Shown: one piece after another, positions 26,862 through 57,302 of the stretch
How the letters are laid out: each line of letters begins with the position of its first letter
Numbering within the stretch: the stretch's first letter is position 1
Source: an uncultured Chloroflexia bacterium
Lineage (GTDB): Bacteria; Chloroflexota; Anaerolineae; Anaerolineales; E44-bin32
Assembly: GCA_963789825.1 (NCBI GenBank)
Contig: CAWBME010000005.1
Coordinates: 257,239 to 321,238, forward strand
Direction: 5' to 3'
Length of the DNA stretch: 64,000 bases
Made by a program: the position numbers and the translations under genes
The notes under the pieces: generated by a model
Seen by the model: the letters and a program-made list of their open reading frames with translations, nothing else
Databases searched by the model: none
What the model was told of the DNA's origin: nothing

Positions 26862-26974
26862 TGTCATCCCGAGGCTGGTCTTCGGCCGAGGGATCTGCTT
26901 GTGCGGTCGGCGAGGGCCAAGCAGATCCCTCGCTGCCCCTCCGCTGCGCTGCGGGGCGGGCGCTCGGGATGACA
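26862..26974. repeat. Third copy of the palindromic element
   Basis: TGTCATCCCGAGG...GAGGGATCTGCTTGTGCGG...GCAGATCCCTCGCTGC...GCGCTCGGGATGACA has the same arms as the copies at 22486 and 22655. Confidence 0.8.
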
Positions 26975-27240
26975 CAAACCCCATGTCACCGTGGCGGGGG
27001 GCGCTCGGGATGACACAAACCCCATGTCACCGTCGCAGGGCGGGCGCTCGGGATGACACAAACTCCATGTCACCGCTGGCGGGGCGGGCGCTCGGGATGA
27101 CACAAACCCCATGTCACCGCCGCAGGGCGGGCGCTCGGGATGACACAATCGCCAGGTCACCGTGGCGGAGCGGACGCTCGGGATGACAGAGGGTGCTGCG
27201 CTCGGGGTGACAGCGGGGGTGCGCTCGGGATGGCGGCGAG
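26960..27240. repeat. Tandem array: six units of 41-44 bp (GCGCTCGGGATGACACAAACCCCATGTCACCG + ~10 nt) followed by two shorter ~23-bp units
   Basis: Unit starts read at 26960, 27001, 27044, 27088, 27131, 27174, 27198 and 27221. Each unit can fold as GATGACA...TGTCACC. The array ends about 150 bp before the gyrA start. Confidence 0.85.
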
Positions 27241-27392
27241 GTGACATGCTCGGGGGACAAGGGCACGCTGTGCTTGGGAGGGCCGAAGGAAGCGGAGATG
27301 TCCGCCAACGTACCCCGAATCCCGGTCCCCGGGGTATAATTCCATTTCGGCCGCGGTCCCCCCGAGTCCCGCACAACGAGTTGACATAAGAG

Positions 27393-29875
27393 ATGGAAAT
27401 CGGCACTGTCCAACAGGTCGATATCGACGAGCAGATGCGTGGGGCGTACCTCGACTACGCCATGAGCGTGATCGTGGCGCGCGCCCTGCCGGACGCCCGC
27501 GACGGCCTCAAGCCGGTTCACCGCCGCATCCTGTACGCCATGCACGACATGGGGATCCGCTCGAACACGCCCCACCGCAAGTCGGCCCGCATCGTGGGCG
27601 AGGTGCTCGGCAAGTACCACCCGCATGGGGACGTGGCGGTGTACGACACCATGGCCCGCCTGGCGCAGGACTTCTCGATGCGCTACCTGCTGATCGACGG
27701 CCAGGGCAATTTCGGCTCGATCGATGGCGACCCGCCGGCGGCCATGCGTTACACCGAGGCCCGCCTCAATCGCCAGGCGGAAGAATTGCTGCTCGATATC
27801 GACAAGGAGACGGTTGATTTCGTCGACAATTTCGACGCCTCCCTGCAGGAGCCGACGGTGCTGCCCGCCCGCCTGCCCAATCTACTGCTCAACGGAACCA
27901 CGGGCATCGCCGTCGGAATGGCCACCAACATCCCGCCGCACAACTTGCGCGAGCTGGCCAGCGCCATTCGCTTCCTGGTCGATGAATACGAGCGGATGGA
28001 CGAGATCGGCGTCGAAGACCTGATGCGGCATGTGCCCGGGCCGGACTTTCCCACCGGCGGCACGATCATCGGCATCGAGGGCATCAAGCAGGCCTACAGC
28101 ACCGGCAAGGGGCGCCTGGTCTTGCGAGCCACTGCCCACATCGAGGAGATGTCGGGCGGCCGCCACCGCATCGTGATCACCGAAATCCCCTACCAGATCA
28201 ACAAGACCGGGCTGATCGAACGGATTGCCGAGCTGGCGCGCGATGGCAGGCTCGACGACATCTCGGATCTGCGGGATGAGTTCGATCGGCGTGGCATGAG
28301 CCTGATCGTCGAGCTGCGTCGCGGAGCGCAGCCGAAGAAGGTCCTGAACAAGCTTTTCAAGTACACCCCGCTGCAGACGACCTACGGCGTGCAGATGCTG
28401 GCCCTGGTCGACGGCGAGCCGCGGGTGCTTTCGCTCAAGCGCGCCCTGCAGGTCTACATCGAGCACCGCCGGGCGGTGATCACCCGCCGCTCGCAGTTTG
28501 AACTTAGGAAGGCCCAGGCCCGGGCCCACATCCTGGATGGCCTGCTGATCGCCCTGGCCAACATCGACGCCGTCATCGAGACCATCCGCAAGTCGAAGGA
28601 CAGCGAAGCCGCCAAGGCCCGCCTGATGGAGCGCTTCTCGCTCAGCGAGCTCCAGGCGGTGGCCATCCTCGACATGCAGCTGCGCCGTCTGGCGGCGCTC
28701 GAGCGCGAGAAGATCGAGACGCGAACACAAAGAAGTTCTCAAGCGCATCGCCCAGCTGGAGGACCTGCTGGCGCATCCCAAGAAGCTACTGGGGGTCATC
28801 AAGGAAGACCTGAGCCAGGTGGAGGCTAGCCTACGGCGACGATCGCCGCTCGAAGATCGCCATCGACGCCTCGGAGGAGCTGCGCGAGGAAGACCTGGTG
28901 GCCGACGAGGCGGTGCTGGTCAGCATCACCGAGCGCGGCTACGTCAAGCGGGTGGCGGCGACGGCCTATCGACGCCAAGGCCGTGGCGGGCGCGGTGTCA
29001 TGGGTCACTCGATGCGCGGCGAAGATGAAGTGATGATGCTCTTCCCGGCGCGCTCGCTCGATACGGTGCTGTTCTTCTCCGATCGCGGCAAGGTGTACTC
29101 GGAGAAGGCCTACCAGATCCCGGACGCCAGCCGGACGGACCGCGGCGTGTCAATGGTCAACATCCTGGCGGTCGAGGCGGACGAGACGATCACCGCCACG
29201 GTGACCGTGCCCAACTTCGAGAGCGCCAACTACTGCACCATGGTCACGCGCAAGGGCAAGATCAAGCGCGTGCAGCTCTCCGAGTTCGCCGCCGTCCGGC
29301 CGTCGGGGTTGATCGCCATCTCGCTCGACAAGGGCGACGAACTCGGCTGGGTCAGGCTGACCAGCGGCAAGAACGAGATCATCCTGGTCACCGAGGCCGG
29401 CCAGGCGCTGCGCTTCCACGAGAAACTGGTGCGCCCGATGGGGCGCCCGGCTGCCGGCATGCGCGCCATCGCCCTGCGCGCCAAGGATCAGGTGGCCAGC
29501 ATGGACGTTGTCGAGGCCAAGGGGGATTTGCTGGTTGTGACCAAGAAAGGCTATGGCAAGCGCACGCCCCTCAAGGAGTACACCCCCAAGGGACGGGCTA
29601 CCAGCGGCGTGCTGACGCTGAGCAAAGAGAAGATGAGCCTCACCGGGCGGATCGCCGCCGCGCGTGTGGTGCACGCCGAGGACGACCTGACGATCATCTC
29701 CAGCGGCGGGATCATGCTGCGCACCAAGGTCGGCCAGGTGAAGCAGGCCGGGCGGGCGACGATGGGCGTGCGCGTGGTCGACCTGAAGGACAAGGACGAG
29801 GTGGGCTCGGTGGCCATCATCTCGGCCAAGGACCTCGAAGCGGCGGGGGTCGAGCAGAACGGGGCCGGCGGCTGA
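27393..29875 (+). CDS. gyrA: DNA gyrase subunit A; two apparent frameshifts near 28720 and 28830
   Basis: ...[32 protein letters not shown]...MRYTEARL.... The three frames join as ...LEREKIE / [36 protein letters not shown] / [26 protein letters not shown]..., followed by C-terminal beta-pinwheel repeats. Confidence 0.92.
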
Positions 29876-29991
29876 CGGGGCGAGCCCGGTCTGGTTTGCC
29901 CGCTCGTCCGGGGCTTGGGGGAGTGGCCCCGCACACCCGAGTCCCTGCCAGTCCCAGATGCCTACACCCACGCTAGAGTGCCCCATCCGTT

Positions 29992-30007
29992 TGTGACGTC
30001 CATCACG
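29992..30007. promoter_or_regulatory. CRP/FNR-family-like palindrome TGTGA-N6-TCACG upstream of the cytochrome operon
   Basis: TGTGACGTCCATCACG matches 9 of 10 positions of TGTGA-N6-TCACA. It lies about 170 bp upstream of ATG 30175, and a GATAAT box sits at 30053-30058. Confidence 0.3.
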
Positions 30008-30174
30008 AGGAGCGGGTGACATCCTTCTCTCCCCTTCGGCACATGCCCAAGCGATAATCCCAGAGAATAGTGGTATTCGCTTATGCGGATGAAAGCTGGT
30101 CCCTGAGCACGGGTGGGCGGCTTCATGAGCCGCCGCATCTGCCAGCGAAGTTCCGCCTCAAGGGAGACAAGCGC

Positions 30175-31634
30175 ATGCGACGTCGCTACGTGTGGATCCT
30201 GGGGCTTGCCGTCACCCTGGCGTTGATCCTCATCCCGATCGCCATCTTCTTCCCCCGCGCGGAGCCGGCGCGCGATGACCCGGCGGCAGCGCTCACGGTG
30301 CGCAAGCCGCCGACCGACCATCAGCCGCTGATGACCGGCCCTTACACCACCGGCGAAGACGTGACGCGCGCCTGCCTGGAATGCCATGCCGACGAAGCCG
30401 ACGAAGTGATGCAGACCGTTCATTGGACCTGGGAGAGCAAGCCCTACCCGATTCCCGGCCACGATGAGCTGGTGACGATCGGCAAGAAGAACAGCCTCAA
30501 CAACTTCTGCATCGGCATCCAGTCCAACTGGGCCGGATGCACCTCCTGCCACGCCGGCTACGGCTGGGAAGATGCCGACTTCGACTTCGGCGACAGCGAG
30601 AAGGTCGACTGCCTGGTGTGCCATGACAACACCGGCACCTACCTGAAGGGACAGGCAGGACTGCCGGCTGAGGGCGTCGACCTGGCCTACGTGGCGCAGA
30701 GCGTCACCTGCCCGACCCGGGAGAACTGCGGCTCGTGCCACTTCTCCGGGGGCGGCGGCAACGCCGTCAAACACGGCGACCTCGATCAGCACCTGATCTA
30801 CCCGACCGAGAACCTGGACGTGCACATGGGCGGCCAGGACATGCTGTGCACCGACTGCCACCAGACCGAGGATCACCAGATCCGCGGCCGGGCGATCTCG
30901 GTCAGCTTCGACCAGGAGAACCAGGCGCATGTGCACGGATTGCCACAGCCAGGCGCCGCATGAGGACGACCGCATCAACACCCACCTGGCCAGCGTCGCT
31001 TGCCAGACCTGCCACGTCCCGGCTGGCGGCACAGGCGATCCGACCAAGATGACCTGGGACTGGTCGACCGCCGGACAAGATCGGCCGGAGGACGAGCACG
31101 AGTATCTGAAGATCAAGGGCTCGTTCTTCTACGAAGAGCGACTTCACGCCGGAGTACTTACTGGTACAACGGCATCTCCGATCGCTATATCCTGGGAGAT
31201 ACGTTTGATCCAAGTCAGCCGCTCAACATGAACCCGCTGGCCGGCGATATCAATGACCCGGACGCCCGCATCTTCCCCTTCAAGGTGCATCGGGCCAAGC
31301 AGCCGTACGACACGCGTCTACAACTACCTGCTCCAGCCCAAGACCTTCGGCGAGGGCGGGTTCTGGACGGAGTTCGACTGGGACCAGGCGCTCCGGATGG
31401 GCTCCGAGGCCGTCGGCCTACCCTTCAGTGGGGAGTACGGCTTCGCCGAGACCGAGATGTACTGGCCGCTGACGCACACCGTCGCACCGGCCGGACAAGG
31501 CACTGCTGTGCGCCGACTGCCATTCACCGGAGGGGCGGCTCGACTGGCAGGCGCTCGGCTATCCCGGTGACCCGATGGAATGGGGCGTGCGGAGTCCGGC
31601 CGCTCCAGGCGAGACCGCGCAGGTGACACCATGA
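30175..31634 (+). CDS. Membrane-anchored octaheme c-type cytochrome, tetrathionate reductase (Otr) family-like; four apparent frameshifts (near 30925, 31148, 31315, 31495)
   Basis: N-terminal TM segment (RRRYVWILGLAVTLALILIPIAIFF). Eight CxxCH motifs: CLECH, CTSCH, CLVCH, CGSCH, CTDCH, CTDCH, CQTCH, CADCH. Blocks such as TVHWTWES and IGKKNSLNNFCIGIQSNWAGCTSCH recall the Otr family from memory. AGGGAG RBS; the stop overlaps the next start (ATGA). Confidence 0.7.
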
Positions 31635-34385
31635 TCTTGCGCGGCAGGCTCCTCCATCCGATCTTCGGCGTGCTCGTCTTCGTCGGGCTGCTGCTGATCG
31701 TCGGCGGCCTCCAGGCGTTGGACGCCTCCGCTGCGCTGAGCTTCAAGCCCGCCGCAGCAGACCTCTCCCCTTCACCCCGATGTGGCGCTGTTGGATGCGG
31801 ATGGCGTGAATGTGTTGGAGAGCGGCAAGCCCGTCTCCACGATGCGCACCTGTGGCGAGTGCCACGACACCGAGTTCATCGCCGCCCATTCCGGCCATTC
31901 GCAGGCTGGCCTCGATAGCTTGGCGCCCGCCGGGGAAACCTCGACCGGGCGTCCCTGGGACATGAGCGAGGGGATCTTCGGGAAGTGGGACCCGATGGTC
32001 TATCGCGTGCTGTCCGAGAGCGGCGGCGCGGAGCTCGACCTAGGGACGGCCGGCTGGGTCCAGACCATCGGGGCCCGCCACGTCGGCGGGGGGCCGGCGG
32101 CGCTCAGCCGCGACGGCACGCCCCTGCAGGAACTGCCAGTCCGCTCCGACGATCCCGAAACCAGCTGGCTCGACCCCGAAAGCGGACAGGTGCGGGCTTG
32201 GGATTGGGAGCAGTCCGGCGTCGTCGAGATGAATTGCTTCCTGTGCCATACGGCCGAGCCCGACAATGCGGCGCGCATCGAGGCCCTGCAGCAGGGTTCC
32301 TTCGGCTGGGCCAACACGGCCACGCTGCTGGCAACCGGCCTGGTCGACCGCACAGGCGATACCTATCGCTGGAACCCATCGGCCTTCGCCGAAGACGGGA
32401 CGGTCACCGCCGCCCAGCTGGCGATCCAGGACCCGGTCAACGAGAACTGCGGTCAGTGCCACGGGCTGGTGCACGATGAGGGCGACGACCCGATTGTAGC
32501 GGTCAGTTGCGACCCGGCGATTCGCCGCACGGTGACCACCGGCCAGATCATCGCCCCCGAGCGGCTCTCTGACTCGGGGATGAACCTGGTCGGCAAGGAA
32601 GACCTAACCCGGCCGTGGGACATCCATGCCGAGCGCCGGGTGGAGTGCACCGACTGCCACTACTCGCTCAACAACCCGGTCTACTTCCAGGAGGCCGAGA
32701 GCGCCCGCCCGGAGCACCTGACCTTCGACCCGCGCCGTCTCGAACTGGGTGAGTACCTGTACCAGCCGTTGCACGATCTGGCGCGTGGGCCAAGCCTCAG
32801 CGATCCAGTGACGCCGGAACAGGCCGGCTCGATGCGCCGCTGCGACTCTTGTCACAGCATCGAGTCCACCCATGACTGGTTGCCCTACAAGGACCGCCAC
32901 CTGGCAGCCTTGAGCTGCGAGACCTGCCACGTGCCGGATATGTACTCCAACGCCGCCCGGCAGGTCGACTGGACCGTGCTGCGCCCTGACAGCTTCGCCC
33001 GCGGCATCTGCCGTGGCACAGACACCACAGTTGGCGGACAGCCGGTCATCACCGGCTTCCAGCCGGTGTGGATGCCGCGCCAGGAACCGGATGGCAGCGC
33101 CCCGCTGACCCCCTACAACCTGGTGACGACCTGGTTCTGGGTTGCCGGCGATCCTGAGCAGCCGGTTCGCCTGACCGAACTGGAGGGCGCCTGGTTCGTG
33201 GGCGATGCCTATGCCCCGGAAGTGATTGCCGCCCTGGATGCGGATGGGGACGGAGCGCTGGCGGACGTGGAACTGCAGCTGGACACGCCGGAGAAGGTGG
33301 AGCTGATCGCCGGTCGCCTGGCGGCACTCGGGGTGGAGAACCCGCGGATCACCGGCGAGATCCAACCCTTCGGCATTCACCACACCATCGCCAGCGATGA
33401 GTGGGCGATCCAGGACTGCCAGGACTGCCACAGTGACCAGTCACGCCTCACCCAGTCCTTCGACCTCGCCGCGTACGTGCCTCCCGGCGCCGAAGCGGCG
33501 TTTGTTGGCGGTTCGACCGCCATCACCTCGGGCGAGATCGTGGCCGCCTCCGACGGCGGGTTGGTGTATCAGCCCGACACCGGGTCGCGCCAGTTGTATG
33601 TTCTGGGACACGACCGTGCCGAGTGGGTCGACTGGCTGGGCGGGCTGCTCTTCGTCGGTGTGCTGATCGGGATCGTGATCCATGGCGGCTTGCGCGTGGT
33701 TTCGGCGATGCGCCACCGCGGGGCTGCCGCCGAACCGGCCACCGAGACCGTGCGCATGTACGGTGTCTACGAACGCCTGTGGCACTGGCTTCAGACCTTC
33801 GCCATCGTGGCGCTGCTCTTCACCGGCCTGGTGATCCACCGTCCCGACAGCTTCGGCATGTTCAGCTTCCGCGGCGTTGTTCTGGTCCACAACATCCTGG
33901 CGGCGATCCTGGTGGTGAACGCCGGCCTGTCGCTCTTCTATCACCTGACCAGCGGGGAGATCCGCCAGTTCGTCCCGCGCCCGGTCGGCTTCTTTGACCA
34001 GGCCATGCTGCAGGCCAAGTACTACCTGAAGGGCATCTTCCGCAATGAACCGCATCCGTTCGAGAAGACGCCGGGCAGGAAGCTCAACCCGCTGCAGCAG
34101 GTGACCTACTTCGGGATCCTCAACGTACTGCTGCCGCTGATGATCCTGACCGGCATCCTGATGTGGGGCGCGCAACGCTGGCCGGAGTACTCGGCCTTGA
34201 TCGGCGGACTAACCGTCCTCGGCCCGGTGCACGCCGGCGTCGCCTGGATGCTGGCGGCTTTCATTGTCGGGCACGTCTATCTGACCACCACTGGGCCCAA
34301 GCCCTTGAGCAGCCTGCAGGGAATGATGTTCGGCACAGAGGCAGTCGAGAAGGGTCCTCTGGAGACCCAGGGAGGGAAGGCATGA
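31631..34385 (+). CDS. Heptaheme cytochrome c fused to a C-terminal di-heme cytochrome b membrane domain (PhsC / FdnI / Ni-Fe hydrogenase cyt b family-like); one apparent frameshift near 31778
   Basis: Signal anchor MILRGRLLHPIFGVLVFVGLLLIVGG. Seven CxxCH motifs: CGECH, CFLCH, CGQCH, CTDCH, CDSCH, CETCH, CQDCH. A C-terminal domain of about 230 aa has 4-5 TM helices and four spaced His (RLWHW, LVHNIL, GPVHAG, IVGHVYL). Confidence 0.75.
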
Positions 34386-34957
34386 CCACAAGCTCCGAGA
34401 TCGGGACGGCCCCGAAGCGAGGACTCCTGCACGCGCTCACCGGCCGGCCGGAAAGGCCATATGCCAATTCCTACGCCGCCGGTGCGTTGCTGGGGATCGT
34501 GCTGTTCCTGTCGTTCTTCATCACCGGCAACGGCCTGGGCGCTTCCGGTGGGTTGAACCGGATGATCGTCTTCGTCGAAGACCTGATCGCGCCGGCCCAC
34601 ATCGACCGCACGCCCTACCTGATCGAGATGGCGGGCGGGGTGCGCAACGCCCTCGATAGCTGGGTGGTGTTCGTCGCCCTGGGGGCGCTGGTTGGCGGCT
34701 TTGCCTCTGGTTGGTTCAACGGTCGGCTGAAGGCGGAGACCAAGAAGGGGCCGCGCATTTCGGTGCGCACCCGCTGGGCGACGGCTTTCGTCGGCGGAGC
34801 GATCATGGGCTATGGCGCCCGCTTCGCCCGCGGTTGCACCTCCGGCCAGGCGCTATCCGGCGGAGCGACGCTCTCTGTCGGAAGTTGGGCGCTGATGTTC
34901 TGCATCTTCGGCAGCGCCTACGCCCTGGCGTACTTTGTGCGCCGTTTGTGGACATAG
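34382..34957 (+). CDS. YeeE/YedE family sulfur-compound transporter half-protein
   Basis: The ATG overlaps the upstream stop. Multi-TM with ...FITGNGLGASGG... and ...GYGARFARGCTSGQALSGG... (sulphur-transport repeat with a conserved Cys). Confidence 0.8.
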   Translation: MTTSSEIGTAPKRGLLHALTGRPERPYANSYAAGALLGIVLFLSFFITGNGLGASGGLNRMIVFVEDLIAPAHIDRTPYLIEMAGGVRNALDSWVVFVALGALVGGFASGWFNGRLKAETKKGPRISVRTRWATAFVGGAIMGYGARFARGCTSGQALSGGATLSVGSWALMFCIFGSAYALAYFVRRLWT

Positions 34958-34967
34958 GGAGGTCAGT

Positions 34968-36197
34968 ATGCCGCCGTTTCCGCTCCACCTCGAGTCCCTG
35001 GTCGGCCAGTACGGCAGCTACCTGGTCTTCTTGCTGATCGGTATCGCCTTCGGCTATGCGTTGGAGATTGCCGGCTTCGGCAACTCCATCAAGCTGGCCA
35101 ACCAGTTCTACCTGAAAGACATGACCGTGCTCAAAGTGATGTTCACGGCGATCGTCGTGGCCATGGTGCTGATTTTCGGTGCCAGTGCCCTCGGCTTGCT
35201 GGACGTCAACCTGATCTGGGTCAATCCCACCTACCTGATCCCGGGGCTCGTCGGCGGCCTGATCATGGGCGTTGGCTTCATCGTCGGCGGCTTCTGCCCC
35301 GGCACCTCGGTGGTGGCAATGGCCACCTGGAAGATCGACGGCCTGTTCTATGTGCTGGGCACGCTGTTCGGCATCTTCCTGTTCGGTGAGACCGTCGACA
35401 ACTTCAGCGCCTTCTGGAACTCGACCTACATGGGCCGGTTGATGCTGCCCGAATGGCTGGGCGTGGATACCGGCGTGGTCGTGGTGGGCGTCGTGCTGAT
35501 GGCGATCGGTATGTTCGCCGGCGCCGAGCAGCTGGAGCGCATCTTTGGCAAGAAGGACCTGAAGGCCGAGCCGCGCCGGCGTTTCGTCGGCGCCGGGGCA
35601 CTGGTCGGGTTGGCGGTGGTGGTTGCGCTGATCGGTCAGCCGACCACCAAAGACCGCTGGCAGGCCGTATCCAGCGTCAAGGAAGCGGCGCTTGCCGAGC
35701 GGCAGGTCCAGATCGAGCCCGGGGAGCTGCTGAACCTGCTGCACGACCACGAGCTCAAGCCGATGCTGCTCGATGTGCGCGACGAGGCAGACTACAACCT
35801 GTTCCATCTCGAACGGGCGATGCACGTGACGCCGGAGATGTTGCCCGAGCGGCTGGAGGAGTTCCAGCTCGAGGGCCCGACGACGGTGTTCGTGGTGATG
35901 AGCAATGATGAGCAGGCGGCAACAGAAGTATGGAAGACGCTGGTGGCCGAGAGTGTGCCCAACGTCTACGTCCTCTCGGGCGGCGTCAACGGCTGGCTCG
36001 ACACCTTTGCCGCCGAGGATGAGCGCATCCAGCCGGCGGAGCCCGGCGCGCCGGACGCGCTGCGCTACACCTTCGCCGCGGCGCTGGGCTCAACCTACCC
36101 GGCCGCCGATCCGAACCCCGGGGAGTATGCGTTGGAGTACCCGACGAAGATCAAGCTAGAACTGAAGCGCGGCCCGACCGGCGGCGGCTGCGGTTGA
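34968..36197 (+). CDS. YeeE/YedE family transporter half fused to a rhodanese-homology domain; C-terminal GGGCG tail
   Basis: GGGAGG RBS. ...IMGVGFIVGGFCPGTSVV... belongs to the membrane domain. The rhodanese-like region (...MLLDVRDEADYNLFHLERAMHV...VFVVMSNDEQAATEVW...VLSGGVNGW) has Ser where the catalytic Cys is expected. The protein ends ...KIKLELKRGPTGGGCG. Confidence 0.75.
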   Translation: MPPFPLHLESLVGQYGSYLVFLLIGIAFGYALEIAGFGNSIKLANQFYLKDMTVLKVMFTAIVVAMVLIFGASALGLLDVNLIWVNPTYLIPGLVGGLIMGVGFIVGGFCPGTSVVAMATWKIDGLFYVLGTLFGIFLFGETVDNFSAFWNSTYMGRLMLPEWLGVDTGVVVVGVVLMAIGMFAGAEQLERIFGKKDLKAEPRRRFVGAGALVGLAVVVALIGQPTTKDRWQAVSSVKEAALAERQVQIEPGELLNLLHDHELKPMLLDVRDEADYNLFHLERAMHVTPEMLPERLEEFQLEGPTTVFVVMSNDEQAATEVWKTLVAESVPNVYVLSGGVNGWLDTFAAEDERIQPAEPGAPDALRYTFAAALGSTYPAADPNPGEYALEYPTKIKLELKRGPTGGGCG

Positions 36198-36235
36198 AAC
36201 CGCCAGACTGAGGCCGATCCCTGCGCCTCTGCCGA

Positions 36236-36278
36236 GCGACCCGCCAGGTCAAGGTGCGAACCGAGACCGGCGGGTCGC
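36236..36278. terminator. Hairpin between convergent genes (possible terminator)
   Basis: GCGACCCGCC ... GGCGGGTCGC forms a 10-bp stem with a 23-nt loop, followed by TGCGTTTGG. Confidence 0.35.
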
Positions 36279-36342
36279 TGCGTTTGGATCAAGACCCATA
36301 GCGGTGGCGGCGGTGAGGGAGTCCTCGCTGACCAGGGTTCGT

Positions 36343-37161
36343 TCAAGCCCGCTGCAACGTGCCGCCCAGCCACACGGCGCGTTCAACCTCGGCGCCACTT
36401 GGCAACAAGCGCGGCAGCAACCCCGCCAGGCGCTGCGGGTCACCGGTGGTGAATAGCCGGGGCGGGCCGGGCTGACCTCGGACTGCCGTCAGGCGGCGCT
36501 CAGTGAGCAGTCGGGCCGCCTGGCGGGCAACGGCCGGCGAGGGGTCGATCACTTGAACGCCCGGTCCGGCCAGTTCCTCAATCAGCGGGATCACGAATGG
36601 GTAGTGGGTGCAGCCGAGCACCAGCGTGTCGACGCCGCGCGCCAGCAAAGGCGCAAGGCCGCGCTGCACAATCGCTCGCGTCTCCGGCCCATCGAAATCG
36701 CCGGCCTCGATGCGCTCGACCAGGCCGGGGAGGGTCTGGGGGATCACTTCGACGCCGCCGGCGAAGCGCTCGACGACCGAGGCGAACAGCTCGCCCTGGA
36801 AGGTGGCCGGCGTGGCCAGCACGCCCACCACCTTGCTGCGGGTGGTCGCCGCCGCCGGCTTGACGGCAGGTTCCATCCCCACAAAGGGGACTTCCGGGAA
36901 GGTCCGGCGCAAGTGCTGCAGCGCGGCGGCGGAGGCCGTGTTGCAGGCCACGACGATCAGCTTGGCGGCGTGATCCAGCAGGAAGCGGGTGATGCCCTCG
37001 GAGAAGGCCTGGACCTGCTCAAGGGGCCTGGGACCGTAGGGGACATGCGCCTGATCGGCGAGGTAGACGACAGACTCATCCGGCAGGGTGCTGCGGATCT
37101 GACGCAACACCGAGAGCCCGCCGAGGCCTGAATCAAACACGCCGATGGGGGATTCGCGCAT
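36343..37161 (-). CDS. murI: Glutamate racemase
   Basis: MRESPIGVFDSGLGGLSVL..., ...VVACNTASAAAL..., ...LGCTHYPF.... Confidence 0.92.
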   Translation of the reverse strand: MRESPIGVFDSGLGGLSVLRQIRSTLPDESVVYLADQAHVPYGPRPLEQVQAFSEGITRFLLDHAAKLIVVACNTASAAALQHLRRTFPEVPFVGMEPAVKPAAATTRSKVVGVLATPATFQGELFASVVERFAGGVEVIPQTLPGLVERIEAGDFDGPETRAIVQRGLAPLLARGVDTLVLGCTHYPFVIPLIEELAGPGVQVIDPSPAVARQAARLLTERRLTAVRGQPGPPRLFTTGDPQRLAGLLPRLLPSGAEVERAVWLGGTLQRA

Positions 37162-55525: not shown

Positions 55526-55889
55526 CCATCGCTCTCCATGACGTGGCTCACGATTTCTTGACCGGGGAGGCGGTGCTCGGGGATTGGCGCAGAAACTCTC
55601 CGAGCAGACGCTCCGAAGTCCCATTGCTGTACACCTCGGCCGTGTCCACCCAGTTCACGCCGGCCCGGCGTGAGACGTCGAAGGCCTGCCGGACATCGTG
55701 CAGCTGATGCGTCGAGCCATAGGACCAGAACCAGCGGTCGCCCCACTGCCAGGCGCCCAGCCCGATGGGGCTGATGCGGACCTCGGACTTCCCCAGGGGC
55801 AGCGTGCTGTCGAACTCGGATCGAAGACTCATCCATCGCTCTCCATGACGTGGCTCACGATTTCTTGACCGGGGACGCGGTGCTGCGGG
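55276..55889. repeat. Direct tandem duplication, 2 x 307 bp (about 98 percent identical)
   Basis: ATTGGCGCAGA(T/A)ACTCTCCGAGCAG...CTCATCCATCGCTCTCCATGACGTGGCTCACGATTTCTTGACCGGGGA occurs at 55276 and 55583. I counted about six mismatches by eye. Confidence 0.85.
55548..55832 (-). pseudogene. Truncated duplicate of the aldo/keto reductase 5' end (first ~90 codons) created by the 307-bp duplication
   Basis: MSLRSEFDSTLPLGKSEVRISPIGLGAWQWG...VYSNGTSERLLGEFLRQSP then reads across the duplication junction into STASPVKKS-stop. Confidence 0.6.
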
Positions 55890-57302
55890 CGCGGCCGTAG
55901 GCCGCCAGCGCTCGCTGTCGCGCCCAGCCGTGGTCGACCAGCGGCAGCGGGTACTGTTCGCCCAGGTGGCAGCCGGATTCGCGCTGCACGCCGGCCGGCA
56001 TCTCCCAGGGCTGGTGGATCCAGCCCTCGGGCACTTGTGCCAGCTCGGGGACCCAACGGCGGATGTACGCCCCGTCCGGATCATGGCGTTGGGCTTGCGC
56101 CGTCGGATTGAACACGCGGAAGTAGGGAGCGGCATCGGTGCCCGTCCCCGCCGCCCACTGCCAGCCGCCGTTGTTGGAGGCCGGGTCGCCGTCCAGCAGC
56201 TGCTGCATGAACCAGCGTCTCGCCCCAACGCCAATCGATCAGCAGATCCTTCACCAGGAAGGAAGCCACGATCATCCGTGCGCGATTGTGCATCCACCCG
56301 GTCGCTGCCAGCTGACGCATGGCCGCGTCAACCAGTGGGTAGCCGGTGCGGCCGGCACACCAGGCCTGGAAGGCGTGCCGATCGTTCTCCCAGCGGATCG
56401 AGCGCAGATCGGCACGGAAGCTACGGCGTCCGACGAGCGGGAAGTGGAACAGGATGGCCGCGAAGAACTCGCGCCAGATCAGTTCGTTCAGCCAGATGTC
56501 CGCACCCTCGCGGGCGGCCTTGTCCGGGGCCAGCTGATAGGCGTCGAGCGCCCCCAGCGCGGCCTGGCGCGCCGAGAGCATCCCGAAGCGCAAGTAGGGT
56601 GACAGCCGGGAAGTCCCAGGCAGGTCGACTCGGTCGCGGCCGAGGCTGTAATCGAAGATCGCTGCCGGCGAAGCGGTGGTGAACTGCTCCAGCTGTCGGT
56701 GGGCGGCGGCCTCGCCGGGCTGGAACTCGTTCGCCTCCACGGCCTCGGGCCGCGGGATCGGCAGGCCGGCGATGCGCGCAGGGGTCGGGATCGAGGCGGG
56801 GGCAGGCAGCAACTCGGGCCGGCCGGGCAGTGGCAGCGACCTCCAGGTGCGCCCGAAGGGCGTGAAGATGGTGTACGGCGTTCCGTCGCGCTTGAGGACG
56901 GCCGCCGGATCGTGCACCGTCGGCCATCCGGTCAGCATCAGCGGGAGGCGTTCGGCGACCTCGGCATCGCGCCGACGGGCGTACGGCGAGACGTCGGCCT
57001 CGGCGAAGATAGCCCGAGCGTCGACCTCGGCGGCCAGCTCGCCCAGCGCTTCGACGGGCACGCCCTGCCGCAGGATCAGCCGCGATCCGCGTGACCTCAG
57101 ATCCTGGTCGAGCGCGCGCAGTCCGTCGAACAGGAAAGCCTGTCGGCGCGGGCTGGCGTTCTTCCCTCCGAGCAGCTGGGGGTCGAGGATGAACACGGGG
57201 ACGACACGTCCCCTCGGCGCACCCCGCCTGCAATGCCGGATTGTCCAGCAGTCGCAGGTCGCGTCGGATCCACCACAGGGCAACCGATCGGCTGCGGCTC
57301 AT
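55855..57302 (-). CDS. phr: Deoxyribodipyrimidine photolyase / cryptochrome family; two apparent frameshifts near 57220 and 56215
   Basis: [24 protein letters not shown] / ...[12 protein letters not shown]...[43 protein letters not shown] / ...[32 protein letters not shown].... Confidence 0.85.

Follow-up and report, generated by a model that had tools for sequence, protein, structure and literature searches.

A predicted heptahaem cytochrome c–cytochrome b fusion encoded beside an Otr-family octahaem cytochrome in an uncultured Anaerolineae bacterium

Results

A fused c7-b gene and its reading frame

The window analysed here, a stretch of 64,000 nucleotides from contig CAWBME010000005.1 of an uncultured Chloroflexia bacterium assigned to the Anaerolineales (assembly GCA_963789825.1), carries on its + strand a gene that joins a predicted seven-haem cytochrome c ectodomain to a cytochrome b domain within a single polypeptide. 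This fusion gene, here called c7-b, runs exactly from a start codon at 31631 to a stop codon at 34385, and it lies between the gene of an octahaem cytochrome c of the Otr family and two genes for YeeE-like proteins, the second of them fused to a rhodanese-like domain (Table 1). An earlier note, made from the letters of this DNA, had drawn attention to seven CxxCH motifs in one long open reading frame (ORF), to a single frame change after the signal anchor, and to an uninterrupted run from the c part into a hydrophobic domain with four histidines, which it read as a dihaem b subunit of the PhsC/FdnI/HyaC type. As detailed below, this description of the protein holds, whereas the claim that such a fusion is unusual is not supported, nor is a link to monoderm cells. 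The Otr gene upstream and the YeeE/rhodanese genes downstream are absent from that note, and it is this gene neighbourhood that indicates a putative function.

The ORF list of the window gives an 867-amino-acid (aa) ORF on the + strand, 31782–34385, to which the residue numbers used here refer unless the corrected ORF of 917 aa is named. The ATG at 31631, which starts MILRGRLLHPIFGVLVFVGLLLIVGG, lies in a frame that differs from that of the long ORF, and the two frames meet near 31754. As a reference for insertions and deletions (indels) we used L001, a locus from an Anaerolineales metagenome-assembled genome (MAG) with 87.8% DNA identity to the window over 11 kb. Deletion of one base at ~31754 produces an ORF of 917 aa that aligns without a gap to the L001 orthologue, at 88.6% identity, so that the frame change noticed earlier comes down to a single extra base. 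Further, the signal sequence is in frame both in L001 and in the nearest relatives (P0001–P0003; 917 aa, 86–89% identity). Neither a stop nor a frameshift separates the c part from the b part, and the linker that joins them, RHRGAAAEPATETVRMYGVYERLWHW, is in frame and without an indel relative to L001; the continuity of the two parts that had been claimed is thus real in the window.

A hydropathy estimate places hydrophobic segments at aa 613–644, 666–687, 691–725, 771–799 and 806–837, the first of which, a linker helix termed TM0, precedes the cytochrome b domain. The ratio of nonsynonymous to synonymous substitution rates (dN/dS) of the fusion gene against L001 is 0.115 overall, 0.10 in the c domain and 0.11 in the b domain. 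The gene overlaps both of its neighbours in ATGA sequences, with its ATG over the stop codon of otr (CCATGATC) and its own stop codon over the start of the first YeeE-like gene (GCATGACC). A scan of 29800–36500 for promoters and terminators returned nothing above chance.

Table 1. Coordinates of the c7-b gene, its parts and the adjoining operon genes in the window
Feature	Position	Strand	Basis or remark
Whole c7-b fusion gene	31631..34385	+	917 aa after removal of one extra base near 31754
Predicted N-terminal Sec-type signal peptide or signal anchor, MILRGRLLHPIFGVLVFVGLLLIVGGLQALDASAALSFKPA	31631..31753	+	In another frame than the rest of the gene
Extra base causing the frame change	31754..31754, ambiguous within ~31747–31765	+	Alignment to L001: window AGCCCGCCGCAGCAGAC versus AGCCCACC-CAGCAGGC
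Predicted extracytoplasmic heptahaem c domain, ~570 residues	31782..33617	+	Seven CxxCH motifs
EF-hand-like loop in the beta domain, DADGDGALADVE	33237..33272	+	D486 and E497 invariant; consensus FDxDGDGxLxxxEL
Linker transmembrane helix TM0, aa 613–644	33618..33713	+	Hydropathy; AlphaFold helix 614–644
Predicted four-helix dihaem cytochrome b domain (PF01292)	33759..34331	+	Pfam, NCBIfam, Foldseek, invariant His
Otr-family octahaem cytochrome c gene	30175..31634	+	Broken by five single-base insertions; TIGR04315 matches
YeeE/YedE-like half-transporter (PF04143), third operon gene	34382..34957	+	Sulf_transp 64.7 bits; directly downstream in 77/80 loci
YeeE-like half fused to a rhodanese-like domain, fourth operon gene	34968..36197	+	Rhodanese (PF00581) 51.3 bits, Sulf_transp 48 bits; 72/80 loci

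The heptahaem c domain and the cytochrome b domain

The seven CxxCH motifs lie at aa 24, 152, 223, 289, 354, 379 and 546 (starting at nucleotides 31851, 32235, 32448, 32646, 32841, 32916 and 33417), where the Cys and His content of the ORF itself would lead one to expect 0.0095 such motifs by chance. Conservation was called throughout from an alignment of 44 homologues, and in all 44 of them the seven motifs are invariant, which places the earlier motif count on firm ground. Beyond the histidines of these motifs, the c domain contains exactly seven more that are invariant (H39, H100, H282, H331, H364, H373 and H534). This is the number of distal ligands needed, and it therefore fits seven bis-His haems serving electron transfer rather than a catalytic haem, so that bis-His haem binding by the c domain is the arrangement we would predict.

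Profile searches, which the earlier note had suggested for the two halves, gave a clear family assignment for the b half and weak matches for the c half, to MmcA (TIGR04314, 42 bits), Otr (TIGR04315, 31 bits) and the MtrC/MtrF domain II/IV model (28 bits). An AlphaFold2 model computed from the 44-sequence alignment has a mean predicted local distance difference test score (pLDDT) of 66. Within the c domain it contains a confidently modelled beta domain at aa 393–531, with pLDDT of 82–93 over most of 391–530 and a dip to 52–67 at 411–450. The EF-hand-like loop of this beta domain may be a Ca2+ site; a match of the region to recoverin, in a PDB search with the family profile, was not significant (E 0.84).

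The C-terminal part scores 88.7 bits against PF01292 (cut-off 30.1), with aa 660–850 aligned to profile positions 2–178 of 179. Its best NCBIfam match is PhsC (NF011582), at 125.4 bits over aa 615–851, followed by models of the HyaC and FdnI types; the PhsC equivalog cut-off of 204 is reached neither by the window protein nor by the L001 orthologue (124.5 bits). The four histidines singled out earlier are all invariant in the alignment, namely H668 (RLWHW), H703 (LVHNIL), H817 (GPVHAG) and H831 (IVGHVYL), and they are distributed 1 + 1 + 2 over helices 1, 2 and 4, with H817 and H831 separated by 14 residues. This is the same pattern as in FdnI, in which the haem ligands are His18/His169 and His57/His155. 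By analogy, H668/H831 would ligate a haem on the cytoplasmic side and H703/H817 a haem on the outer side, a sidedness that follows from the topology implied by the signal sequence and by the basic loop after TM0. Two b-type haems and a quinone site are predicted in this domain.

Comparison with solved structures points in the same direction. A PDB search with the single sequence of the fusion protein gave no match, and with the profile of the 44 homologues HyaC (E 0.013) and FdnI (E 0.07) were the only respiratory matches, both of them marginal; in the HyaC alignment, RLWHW lines up with RIWHWL and the H...H helix with H...GHVYM. Searched by Foldseek, the model, whose pLDDT is mostly 70–90 in the b domain, matched FdnI best (1kqf_C; E 6.2e-4, target TM-score 0.69, root-mean-square deviation 3.4 Å over 211 columns) and HyaC second (6g94_A, target TM-score 0.61), in both cases through the b domain only. 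By profile, modelled fold and histidine pattern, the C-terminal part is a cytochrome b of the PF01292 FdnI/HyaC/PhsC type, in agreement with the assignment made at the outset.

Fused and split forms across genomes

A protein search returned 2114 hits, and our statements on fusions cover the best 120. All of these are full-length fusions of 893–965 aa with 98–100% query coverage and a PF01292 domain, and database entries give them no other names than 'cytochrome b/b6 domain-containing protein' or 'thiosulfate reductase cytochrome b subunit'. In a set with one genome per species, 538 species genomes encode a relative of the fusion. The 80 loci listed among them, on which all locus statistics given here are based, are almost all from Anaerolineales or other Chloroflexota, genomes of Ardenticatenaceae and of Candidatus Amarolinea among them, and the matches in these loci are continuous proteins. 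Homologues with the same fusion, which the earlier note had proposed to look for in Chloroflexota, are accordingly plentiful, and its view of the fusion as unusual is contradicted by these numbers as well as by the published precedent of CbcL, MtoC and MtrH (PMC6295460, PMC9129911).

Searched by itself, the ectodomain found 746 representative clusters. Among the best 150 of these, 35 carry a full fused b domain (33 with seven haems, one with ten and one with fifteen), and 57 are proteins of 550–760 aa with six to eight haems and one terminal transmembrane (TM) helix, without a b domain. Two such split genes that were looked up (L081 and L086) are both immediately followed by a separate PF01292 gene of 204–214 aa, in the gene order Otr, c7, separate PF01292 gene, Sulf_transp twice, rhodanese. 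Their seven-haem ectodomains are homologous to that of the window (E 1e-183 and 1e-172) and end in a helix equivalent to TM0 followed by a basic tail; the separate cytochromes b open with the sequence '...YMY..YERIWHW', which in the fusion comes just after the linker, and they have retained all four histidines. An invariant histidine at the cytoplasmic end of TM0, H634, is also kept in the split seven-haem proteins. Relative to the window, then, c7 and b are separate in these homologues, as are the YeeE-like and rhodanese parts, and the break between c7 and b falls in the cytoplasmic loop after TM0. Both the covalent join and its counterpart with separate subunits, anticipated from respiratory complexes, thus occur within one family, and from these alignments the window protein is best described as the fused state of a two-gene module made up of an anchored seven-haem cytochrome and a cytochrome b. 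In topological terms a join of this kind is simple, since the anchor helix would end, and the cytochrome b begin, in the cytoplasm.

The same fused gene is present in the same operon in Xanthomonadales/Gammaproteobacteria MAGs, and the fused form also occurs on a contig that encodes an LptD-like protein. In view of these occurrences we reject the fusion as an adaptation to a monoderm envelope, and with it a link to monoderm cells. Further, there is a related fused clade with ten CxxCH motifs (P0157, 946 aa), whose relatives carry Gammaproteobacteria names; a search with P0157 that was aimed at Geobacter CbcL gave Gammaproteobacteria MAG proteins instead. At the P0157 locus (L084, L085; 6001–8841), the neighbours are a small c7-like cytochrome, fumarate reductase genes of the frdABCD type and a UbiE-type methyltransferase.

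Operon and partner genes

The gene order around c7-b is conserved: Otr octahaem cytochrome, c7-b, YeeE-like protein, and YeeE-like protein fused to rhodanese are present in 74–75, 80, 77 and 72 of the 80 loci, respectively, and in the exceptions seen, the match lies near the end of the locus. A search of the literature on octahaem cytochromes, tetrathionate, YeeE and rhodanese yielded no description of this four-gene operon, nor was one found of the seven-haem subunit, its fusion or the GGCG-tailed protein described below. In the window, the neighbours of the fusion gene are the Otr and YeeE-like genes, gyrA and a glutamate racemase-like gene, without PhsA or PhsB.

The otr fragments of the window score 270 and 87 bits against TIGR04315, and removal of five bases restores an ORF of 484 aa with eight CxxCH motifs. 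The intact L001 orthologue reaches 576.6 bits against the same model (cut-off 375) and aligns to the crystallised Shewanella OTR (1SP3) with 520 bits and 55% identity over 418 residues. It keeps the GKKNS motif, whose Lys56 is the haem ligand in the Shewanella enzyme.

In the fourth protein of the operon, the rhodanese-like domain never has Cys at its catalytic position; of 61 orthologues, 60 have Ser there and one has Gly. The protein's C-terminus reads GGCG in 59 of 60 related loci and GGCGG in the remaining one, and in the window it likewise reads GGCG. Apart from the Cys of this tail, one Cys is invariant, in the YeeE motif GGFCPGTS. Stand-alone rhodanese versions (L081, 5942–6598; L086, 5263–5889) keep the tail, as GGGCG and GGCGG, and have an N-terminal hydrophobic anchor. 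The carrier arm of SoxY reportedly is a C-terminal GGCGG peptide, and the GGCG tail conforms to this arm motif. The likeness stays at the level of the motif and does not extend to a SoxY fold with a SoxZ partner, given that the domain before the tail is rhodanese-like and that there is no SoxY/SoxZ homologue among the genes conserved around the 80 loci. A strongly basic loop before the last helix of the fused YeeE-like/rhodanese protein suggests that the tail is probably exposed outside the membrane, next to Otr and the c7 domain.

Directly upstream of otr, 54 of the 80 loci encode a regulator of the ArsR/SmtB family of ~115 aa (e.g., L011, 3988–4329), with 78–82 bits against a cut-off of 55 and weaker similarity to the TsoR and BigR models. 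It is absent from the window (29876–30174) and from L001, in both of which gyrA lies directly upstream. On the far side of gyrA (+), between it and a penicillin-amidase gene (-), a tandem array made up of 5.5 copies of a 43-nt unit (GGGCGGGCGCTCGGGATGACACAAACCCCATGTCACCGTGGCA), with 89% matches, occupies the intergenic region at 26947–27188, and L001 has a matching repeat region at the corresponding place.

Single-base insertions in the window

Against L001, the window shows eight uncompensated single-base insertions and no deletions, all within 28722–31754: two in gyrA (28722 and 28824), five in otr (30929, 31137, 31160, 31315 and 31495) and one in c7-b (31754). Most are not homopolymer extensions, and the following 4.4 kb of the same operon are free of insertions relative to L001. 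As a result, gyrA is split in the window into an N-terminal ORF (27390–28829) and a C-terminal one (28898–29875); in L001, gyrA (826 aa), otr and the fusion gene are all intact. Elsewhere in the window, a DNA photolyase gene (55855–57298, - strand) is split by a frame change near 56081–56238, where one ORF covers DNA_photolyase and positions 1–98 of FAD_binding_7 and an overlapping one covers positions 94–201. It was the only one of five suspicious ORF pairs tested with Pfam that was confirmed as a split gene, and it suggests that indel problems extend beyond the otr region and are a matter of assembly quality. A frame plot based on GC content at third codon positions was too noisy to map frameshifts over the whole window.

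Given that gyrA is essential, that every change is an insertion into coding sequence that is intact in other respects, and that dN/dS is as low as 0.115, the eight extra bases are very probably sequence errors rather than marks of gene decay. The same holds for the base near 31754 in particular, which is likelier an error because it is clustered with seven others, two of which break gyrA. In the organism itself, the fusion gene is therefore probably intact. Programmed frameshifting at 31754 was also considered and is rejected, since relatives are unshifted at this place and the base has seven insertions of a similar kind in its vicinity, of which gyrA contains two.

Discussion

Proposed role of c7-b

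We think it likely that c7-b, a membrane 'bc-type' cytochrome, serves the co-encoded Otr as a dedicated subunit that couples it to the quinone pool. Specifically, the Sec signal would export the domain of ~570 residues with its seven bis-His c haems, TM0 would return the chain to the cytoplasm, and a short basic loop would lead into the four-helix cytochrome b, whose two haems would lie one above the other across the membrane. Menaquinol would supply the electrons, which would enter the pair of b haems, travel along the seven c haems and arrive at the Otr enzyme, which would act on an extracytoplasmic sulfur (or nitrogen-oxide) compound, while the two YeeE-like proteins and the rhodanese/GGCG protein would handle sulfur species. 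This proposal builds on the observed domain identities, ligand conservation, fused and split forms and synteny; that haems are bound, that Otr is the partner, that quinol donates the electrons and which way these flow are points that we infer. The pairing is suggested by the position of Otr upstream in 74–75 of 80 loci, by the ATGA overlaps and by the recurrence of the operon in Gammaproteobacteria MAGs. The YeeE, rhodanese-GGCG and ArsR context, in turn, argues for a sulfur compound as the substrate, possibly one bound to a carrier. If quinone were bound on the cytoplasmic side, as it is in FdnI, electrons moving outward would draw on the membrane potential, which would suit low-potential sulfur acceptors; outward flow at the expense of membrane potential has been reported for PhsABC.

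Several observations weigh against this proposal or limit what it can claim. Sequence by itself does not tell which way the electrons flow. The physiological substrate and role of OTR enzymes have been called unestablished (PMC12949373, 2026), and in the same work Shewanella ANA-3 respires tetrathionate without needing OTR, whose in vitro activities are mainly those on nitrite and hydroxylamine. Modelling, which the earlier note had proposed as a check that would include the distances between haems, was informative for one half: the b domain came out FdnI-like, but pLDDT is below 50 over the haem-rich aa 218–390 of the c domain, which leaves a continuous haem chain putative, and Foldseek found no fold match in the PDB for the c domain. 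In and near the membrane part, four further histidines are invariant (H634, H686, H721 and H758; 33681–34055, + strand) that fall outside the FdnI-type ligand set; they may serve an extra haem, the quinone site or neither. The fusion gene is frameshifted as it stands in the window. Finally, the ten-CxxCH fused clade stands without Otr, which implies that the family is not obligately tied to that enzyme.

A more specific version of the proposal, which we put forward tentatively and regard as rather doubtful, is a carrier-based sulfur redox machine, which would be spread over hundreds of Chloroflexota species genomes and some Gammaproteobacteria. Otr would then act not on free tetrathionate but on a sulfur species bound covalently to the SoxY-like GGCG Cys arm, displayed at the outer face by the membrane-anchored YeeE/rhodanese protein, and c7-b would couple this reaction to menaquinone through a transmembrane pair of b haems that might be driven by proton-motive force or might build it. 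If this were true, the OTR family would gain its missing physiological role and its electron partner.

Alternative explanations

The wiring could also run the other way, with Otr oxidising sulfide, sulfite or a carrier-bound species on the outer side, and with electrons passing inward to reduce menaquinone on the cytoplasmic side, so that an FdnI-type redox loop would build proton-motive force. The membrane domain does have the FdnI fold and histidine pattern, and in Fdn-N a domain of this fold carries electrons inward to a cytoplasmic-side quinone site; inward flow through c7-b would likewise build membrane potential. The GGCG tail, the YeeE-like proteins and the ArsR-family regulator (54 of 80 loci) moreover recall accessory genes of Sox systems, the counterparts presumably being soxY, soxT and soxR. 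In lucinid symbionts, otr has been reported to adjoin divergent soxY/soxZ (PMC11237559). We nonetheless consider this direction unlikely. The best-scoring curated family for the b domain, PhsC, is a quinol-oxidising subunit, and menaquinone has a potential of about -74 mV. Oxidation of thiosulfate to tetrathionate, a couple at +198 mV (PMC8528874), cannot reduce it, and the known activities of the Otr family, on tetrathionate, nitrite and hydroxylamine, are all reductions (PMC12949373). On the strength of the known activities and of this potential, we favour flow from quinol to Otr fairly firmly over the reverse. Very improbable, in our judgement, is a further alternative in which c7-b would be a self-sufficient extracellular electron conduit of the CbcL type, feeding soluble carriers, minerals or humics without involvement of Otr. 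The architecture does match CbcL, in which multihaem c and HydC/FdnI-like b domains share a single chain (PMC6295460, PMC9129911), and this alternative can also draw on the weak match to MtrC/MtrF domain II/IV, on the beta domain that lies between the haems and on the ten-haem clade without Otr. However, Otr is upstream in essentially every locus that is uncut by a contig end, in two phyla and with overlapping stop and start codons; the haem density is low, at ~80 residues per haem as against 28 in CbcL; and the downstream genes serve sulfur handling rather than metal reduction.

Two other explanations concern the DNA rather than the function. The frame changes in otr and c7-b might be genuine, and the cluster a set of pseudogenes decaying in the source organism, as the five frame-breaking insertions in otr and the one in c7-b would have it at face value. 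We find this quite improbable, since the same 3-kb stretch has two insertions of the identical type in the essential gyrA, all eight changes are single-base insertions whose removal restores complete ORFs, dN/dS stands at 0.115, the remaining 4.4 kb of the operon are insertion-free, and a photolyase gene elsewhere is split too. Conversely, the fusion itself might be an artefact, produced by a sequencing error that erased the stop between adjacent c7 and cytochrome b genes, a suspicion nourished by the two-gene versions found elsewhere and by the indel errors of the window. This is practically out of the question: the best 120 hits are continuous proteins of 893–965 aa, as are the matches at 80 independent loci and the 917-aa L001 orthologue, and the linker is in frame without an indel against L001. 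Only an error common to all the independent assemblies could save the artefact explanation, which otherwise stands refuted.

Significance

As a fusion, c7-b is ordinary. It is typical of its family, which is large and uncharacterised, and it varies the known theme of fused bc-cytochromes in that its c domain differs and an enzyme partner would be dedicated to it. What makes it valuable is the gene neighbourhood, in which a close relative of OTR is tied to a putative quinone-coupling cytochrome, two YeeE-like proteins and a Cys-less rhodanese/GGCG protein. The operon thus bears on the function and the electron donor of OTR, still called unestablished (PMC12949373), and it leads to testable predictions, namely that the substrate would be a sulfur species, perhaps carrier-bound, that the donor would be menaquinol by way of c7-b, and that the reaction would be coupled to energy conversion as outlined above. 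Beyond the enzyme, the findings suggest that abundant Anaerolineae of sludge and sediments may take part in the cycling of sulfur intermediates. Finally, the fused and split pairs show cleanly, in a case provided by nature, how two subunits can become joined at a cytoplasmic loop.

Comparison with known systems

The closest published parallel in architecture is CbcL (GSU0274) of Geobacter sulfurreducens, which, with its homologues MtoC and MtrH, belongs to the single-chain menaquinol oxidases of the inner membrane that combine a multihaem c and a dihaem b part (PMC6295460, PMC9129911). Compared by its published description, CbcL likewise unites both parts in one chain, with a periplasmic multihaem c domain at the N-terminus and a dihaem b domain of the HydC/FdnI-like kind at the C-terminus, and all of its c haems are bis-His (PMC6295460, PMC9129911). 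The two proteins differ in the packing of the c domain, where CbcL has nine haems in ~250 residues (30–279; PMC9129911) and the window protein seven in ~570, with a beta domain and an EF-hand-like loop. They may differ as well in the count of TM helices, six in CbcL and, by hydropathy estimate, five after the ectodomain plus an N-terminal signal/anchor in the window protein; CbcL homologues with four or five helices are also on record (PMC6295460). While CbcL feeds PpcA and extracellular acceptors, the window gene is operon-linked to Otr and to sulfur-handling proteins. A 2018 survey reported no CbcL homologue in Chloroflexi (PMC6295460), and among the papers listed by our literature search none treats CbcL together with Chloroflexi, Chloroflexota or Anaerolineae.

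With respect to the enzyme partner, an Otr gene beside a cytochrome b gene (b561 or 'PhsC-like') has been described in Ignavibacteria (PMC7509429) and in orange Beggiatoaceae (PMC6449678), and was read there as a membrane-linked reductase; those reports describe neither an intervening or fused seven-haem cytochrome nor YeeE/rhodanese-GGCG genes. The b domain itself is most like PhsC of the thiosulfate reductase PhsABC, its best curated family, in which the extra first helix is covered by the match and which is the quinol-oxidising PF01292 subunit of a sulfur-compound reductase. It differs in scoring below the equivalog cut-off and in having no PhsA/PhsB molybdenum and iron-sulfur subunits nearby, the partners here being a fused heptahaem c domain and an octahaem enzyme.

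The closest solved folds of the b domain are FdnI of formate dehydrogenase-N (1KQF) and HyaC of hydrogenase-1 (4GD3, 6G94), which share its four-His pattern. In these complexes, the periplasmic electron-transfer subunit, FdnH or HyaA, has a terminal TM helix that is packed onto the four helices of FdnI or HyaC. FdnH and HyaA are iron-sulfur proteins rather than c-type cytochromes and are not known to be fused to their cytochrome b, and the sequence similarity of the b domain to FdnI and HyaC is marginal (E 0.013–0.07). The arrangement of FdnH with FdnI, and of HyaA with HyaC, is the one seen in the split homologues of c7-b, and in the fusion this arrangement is covalent.

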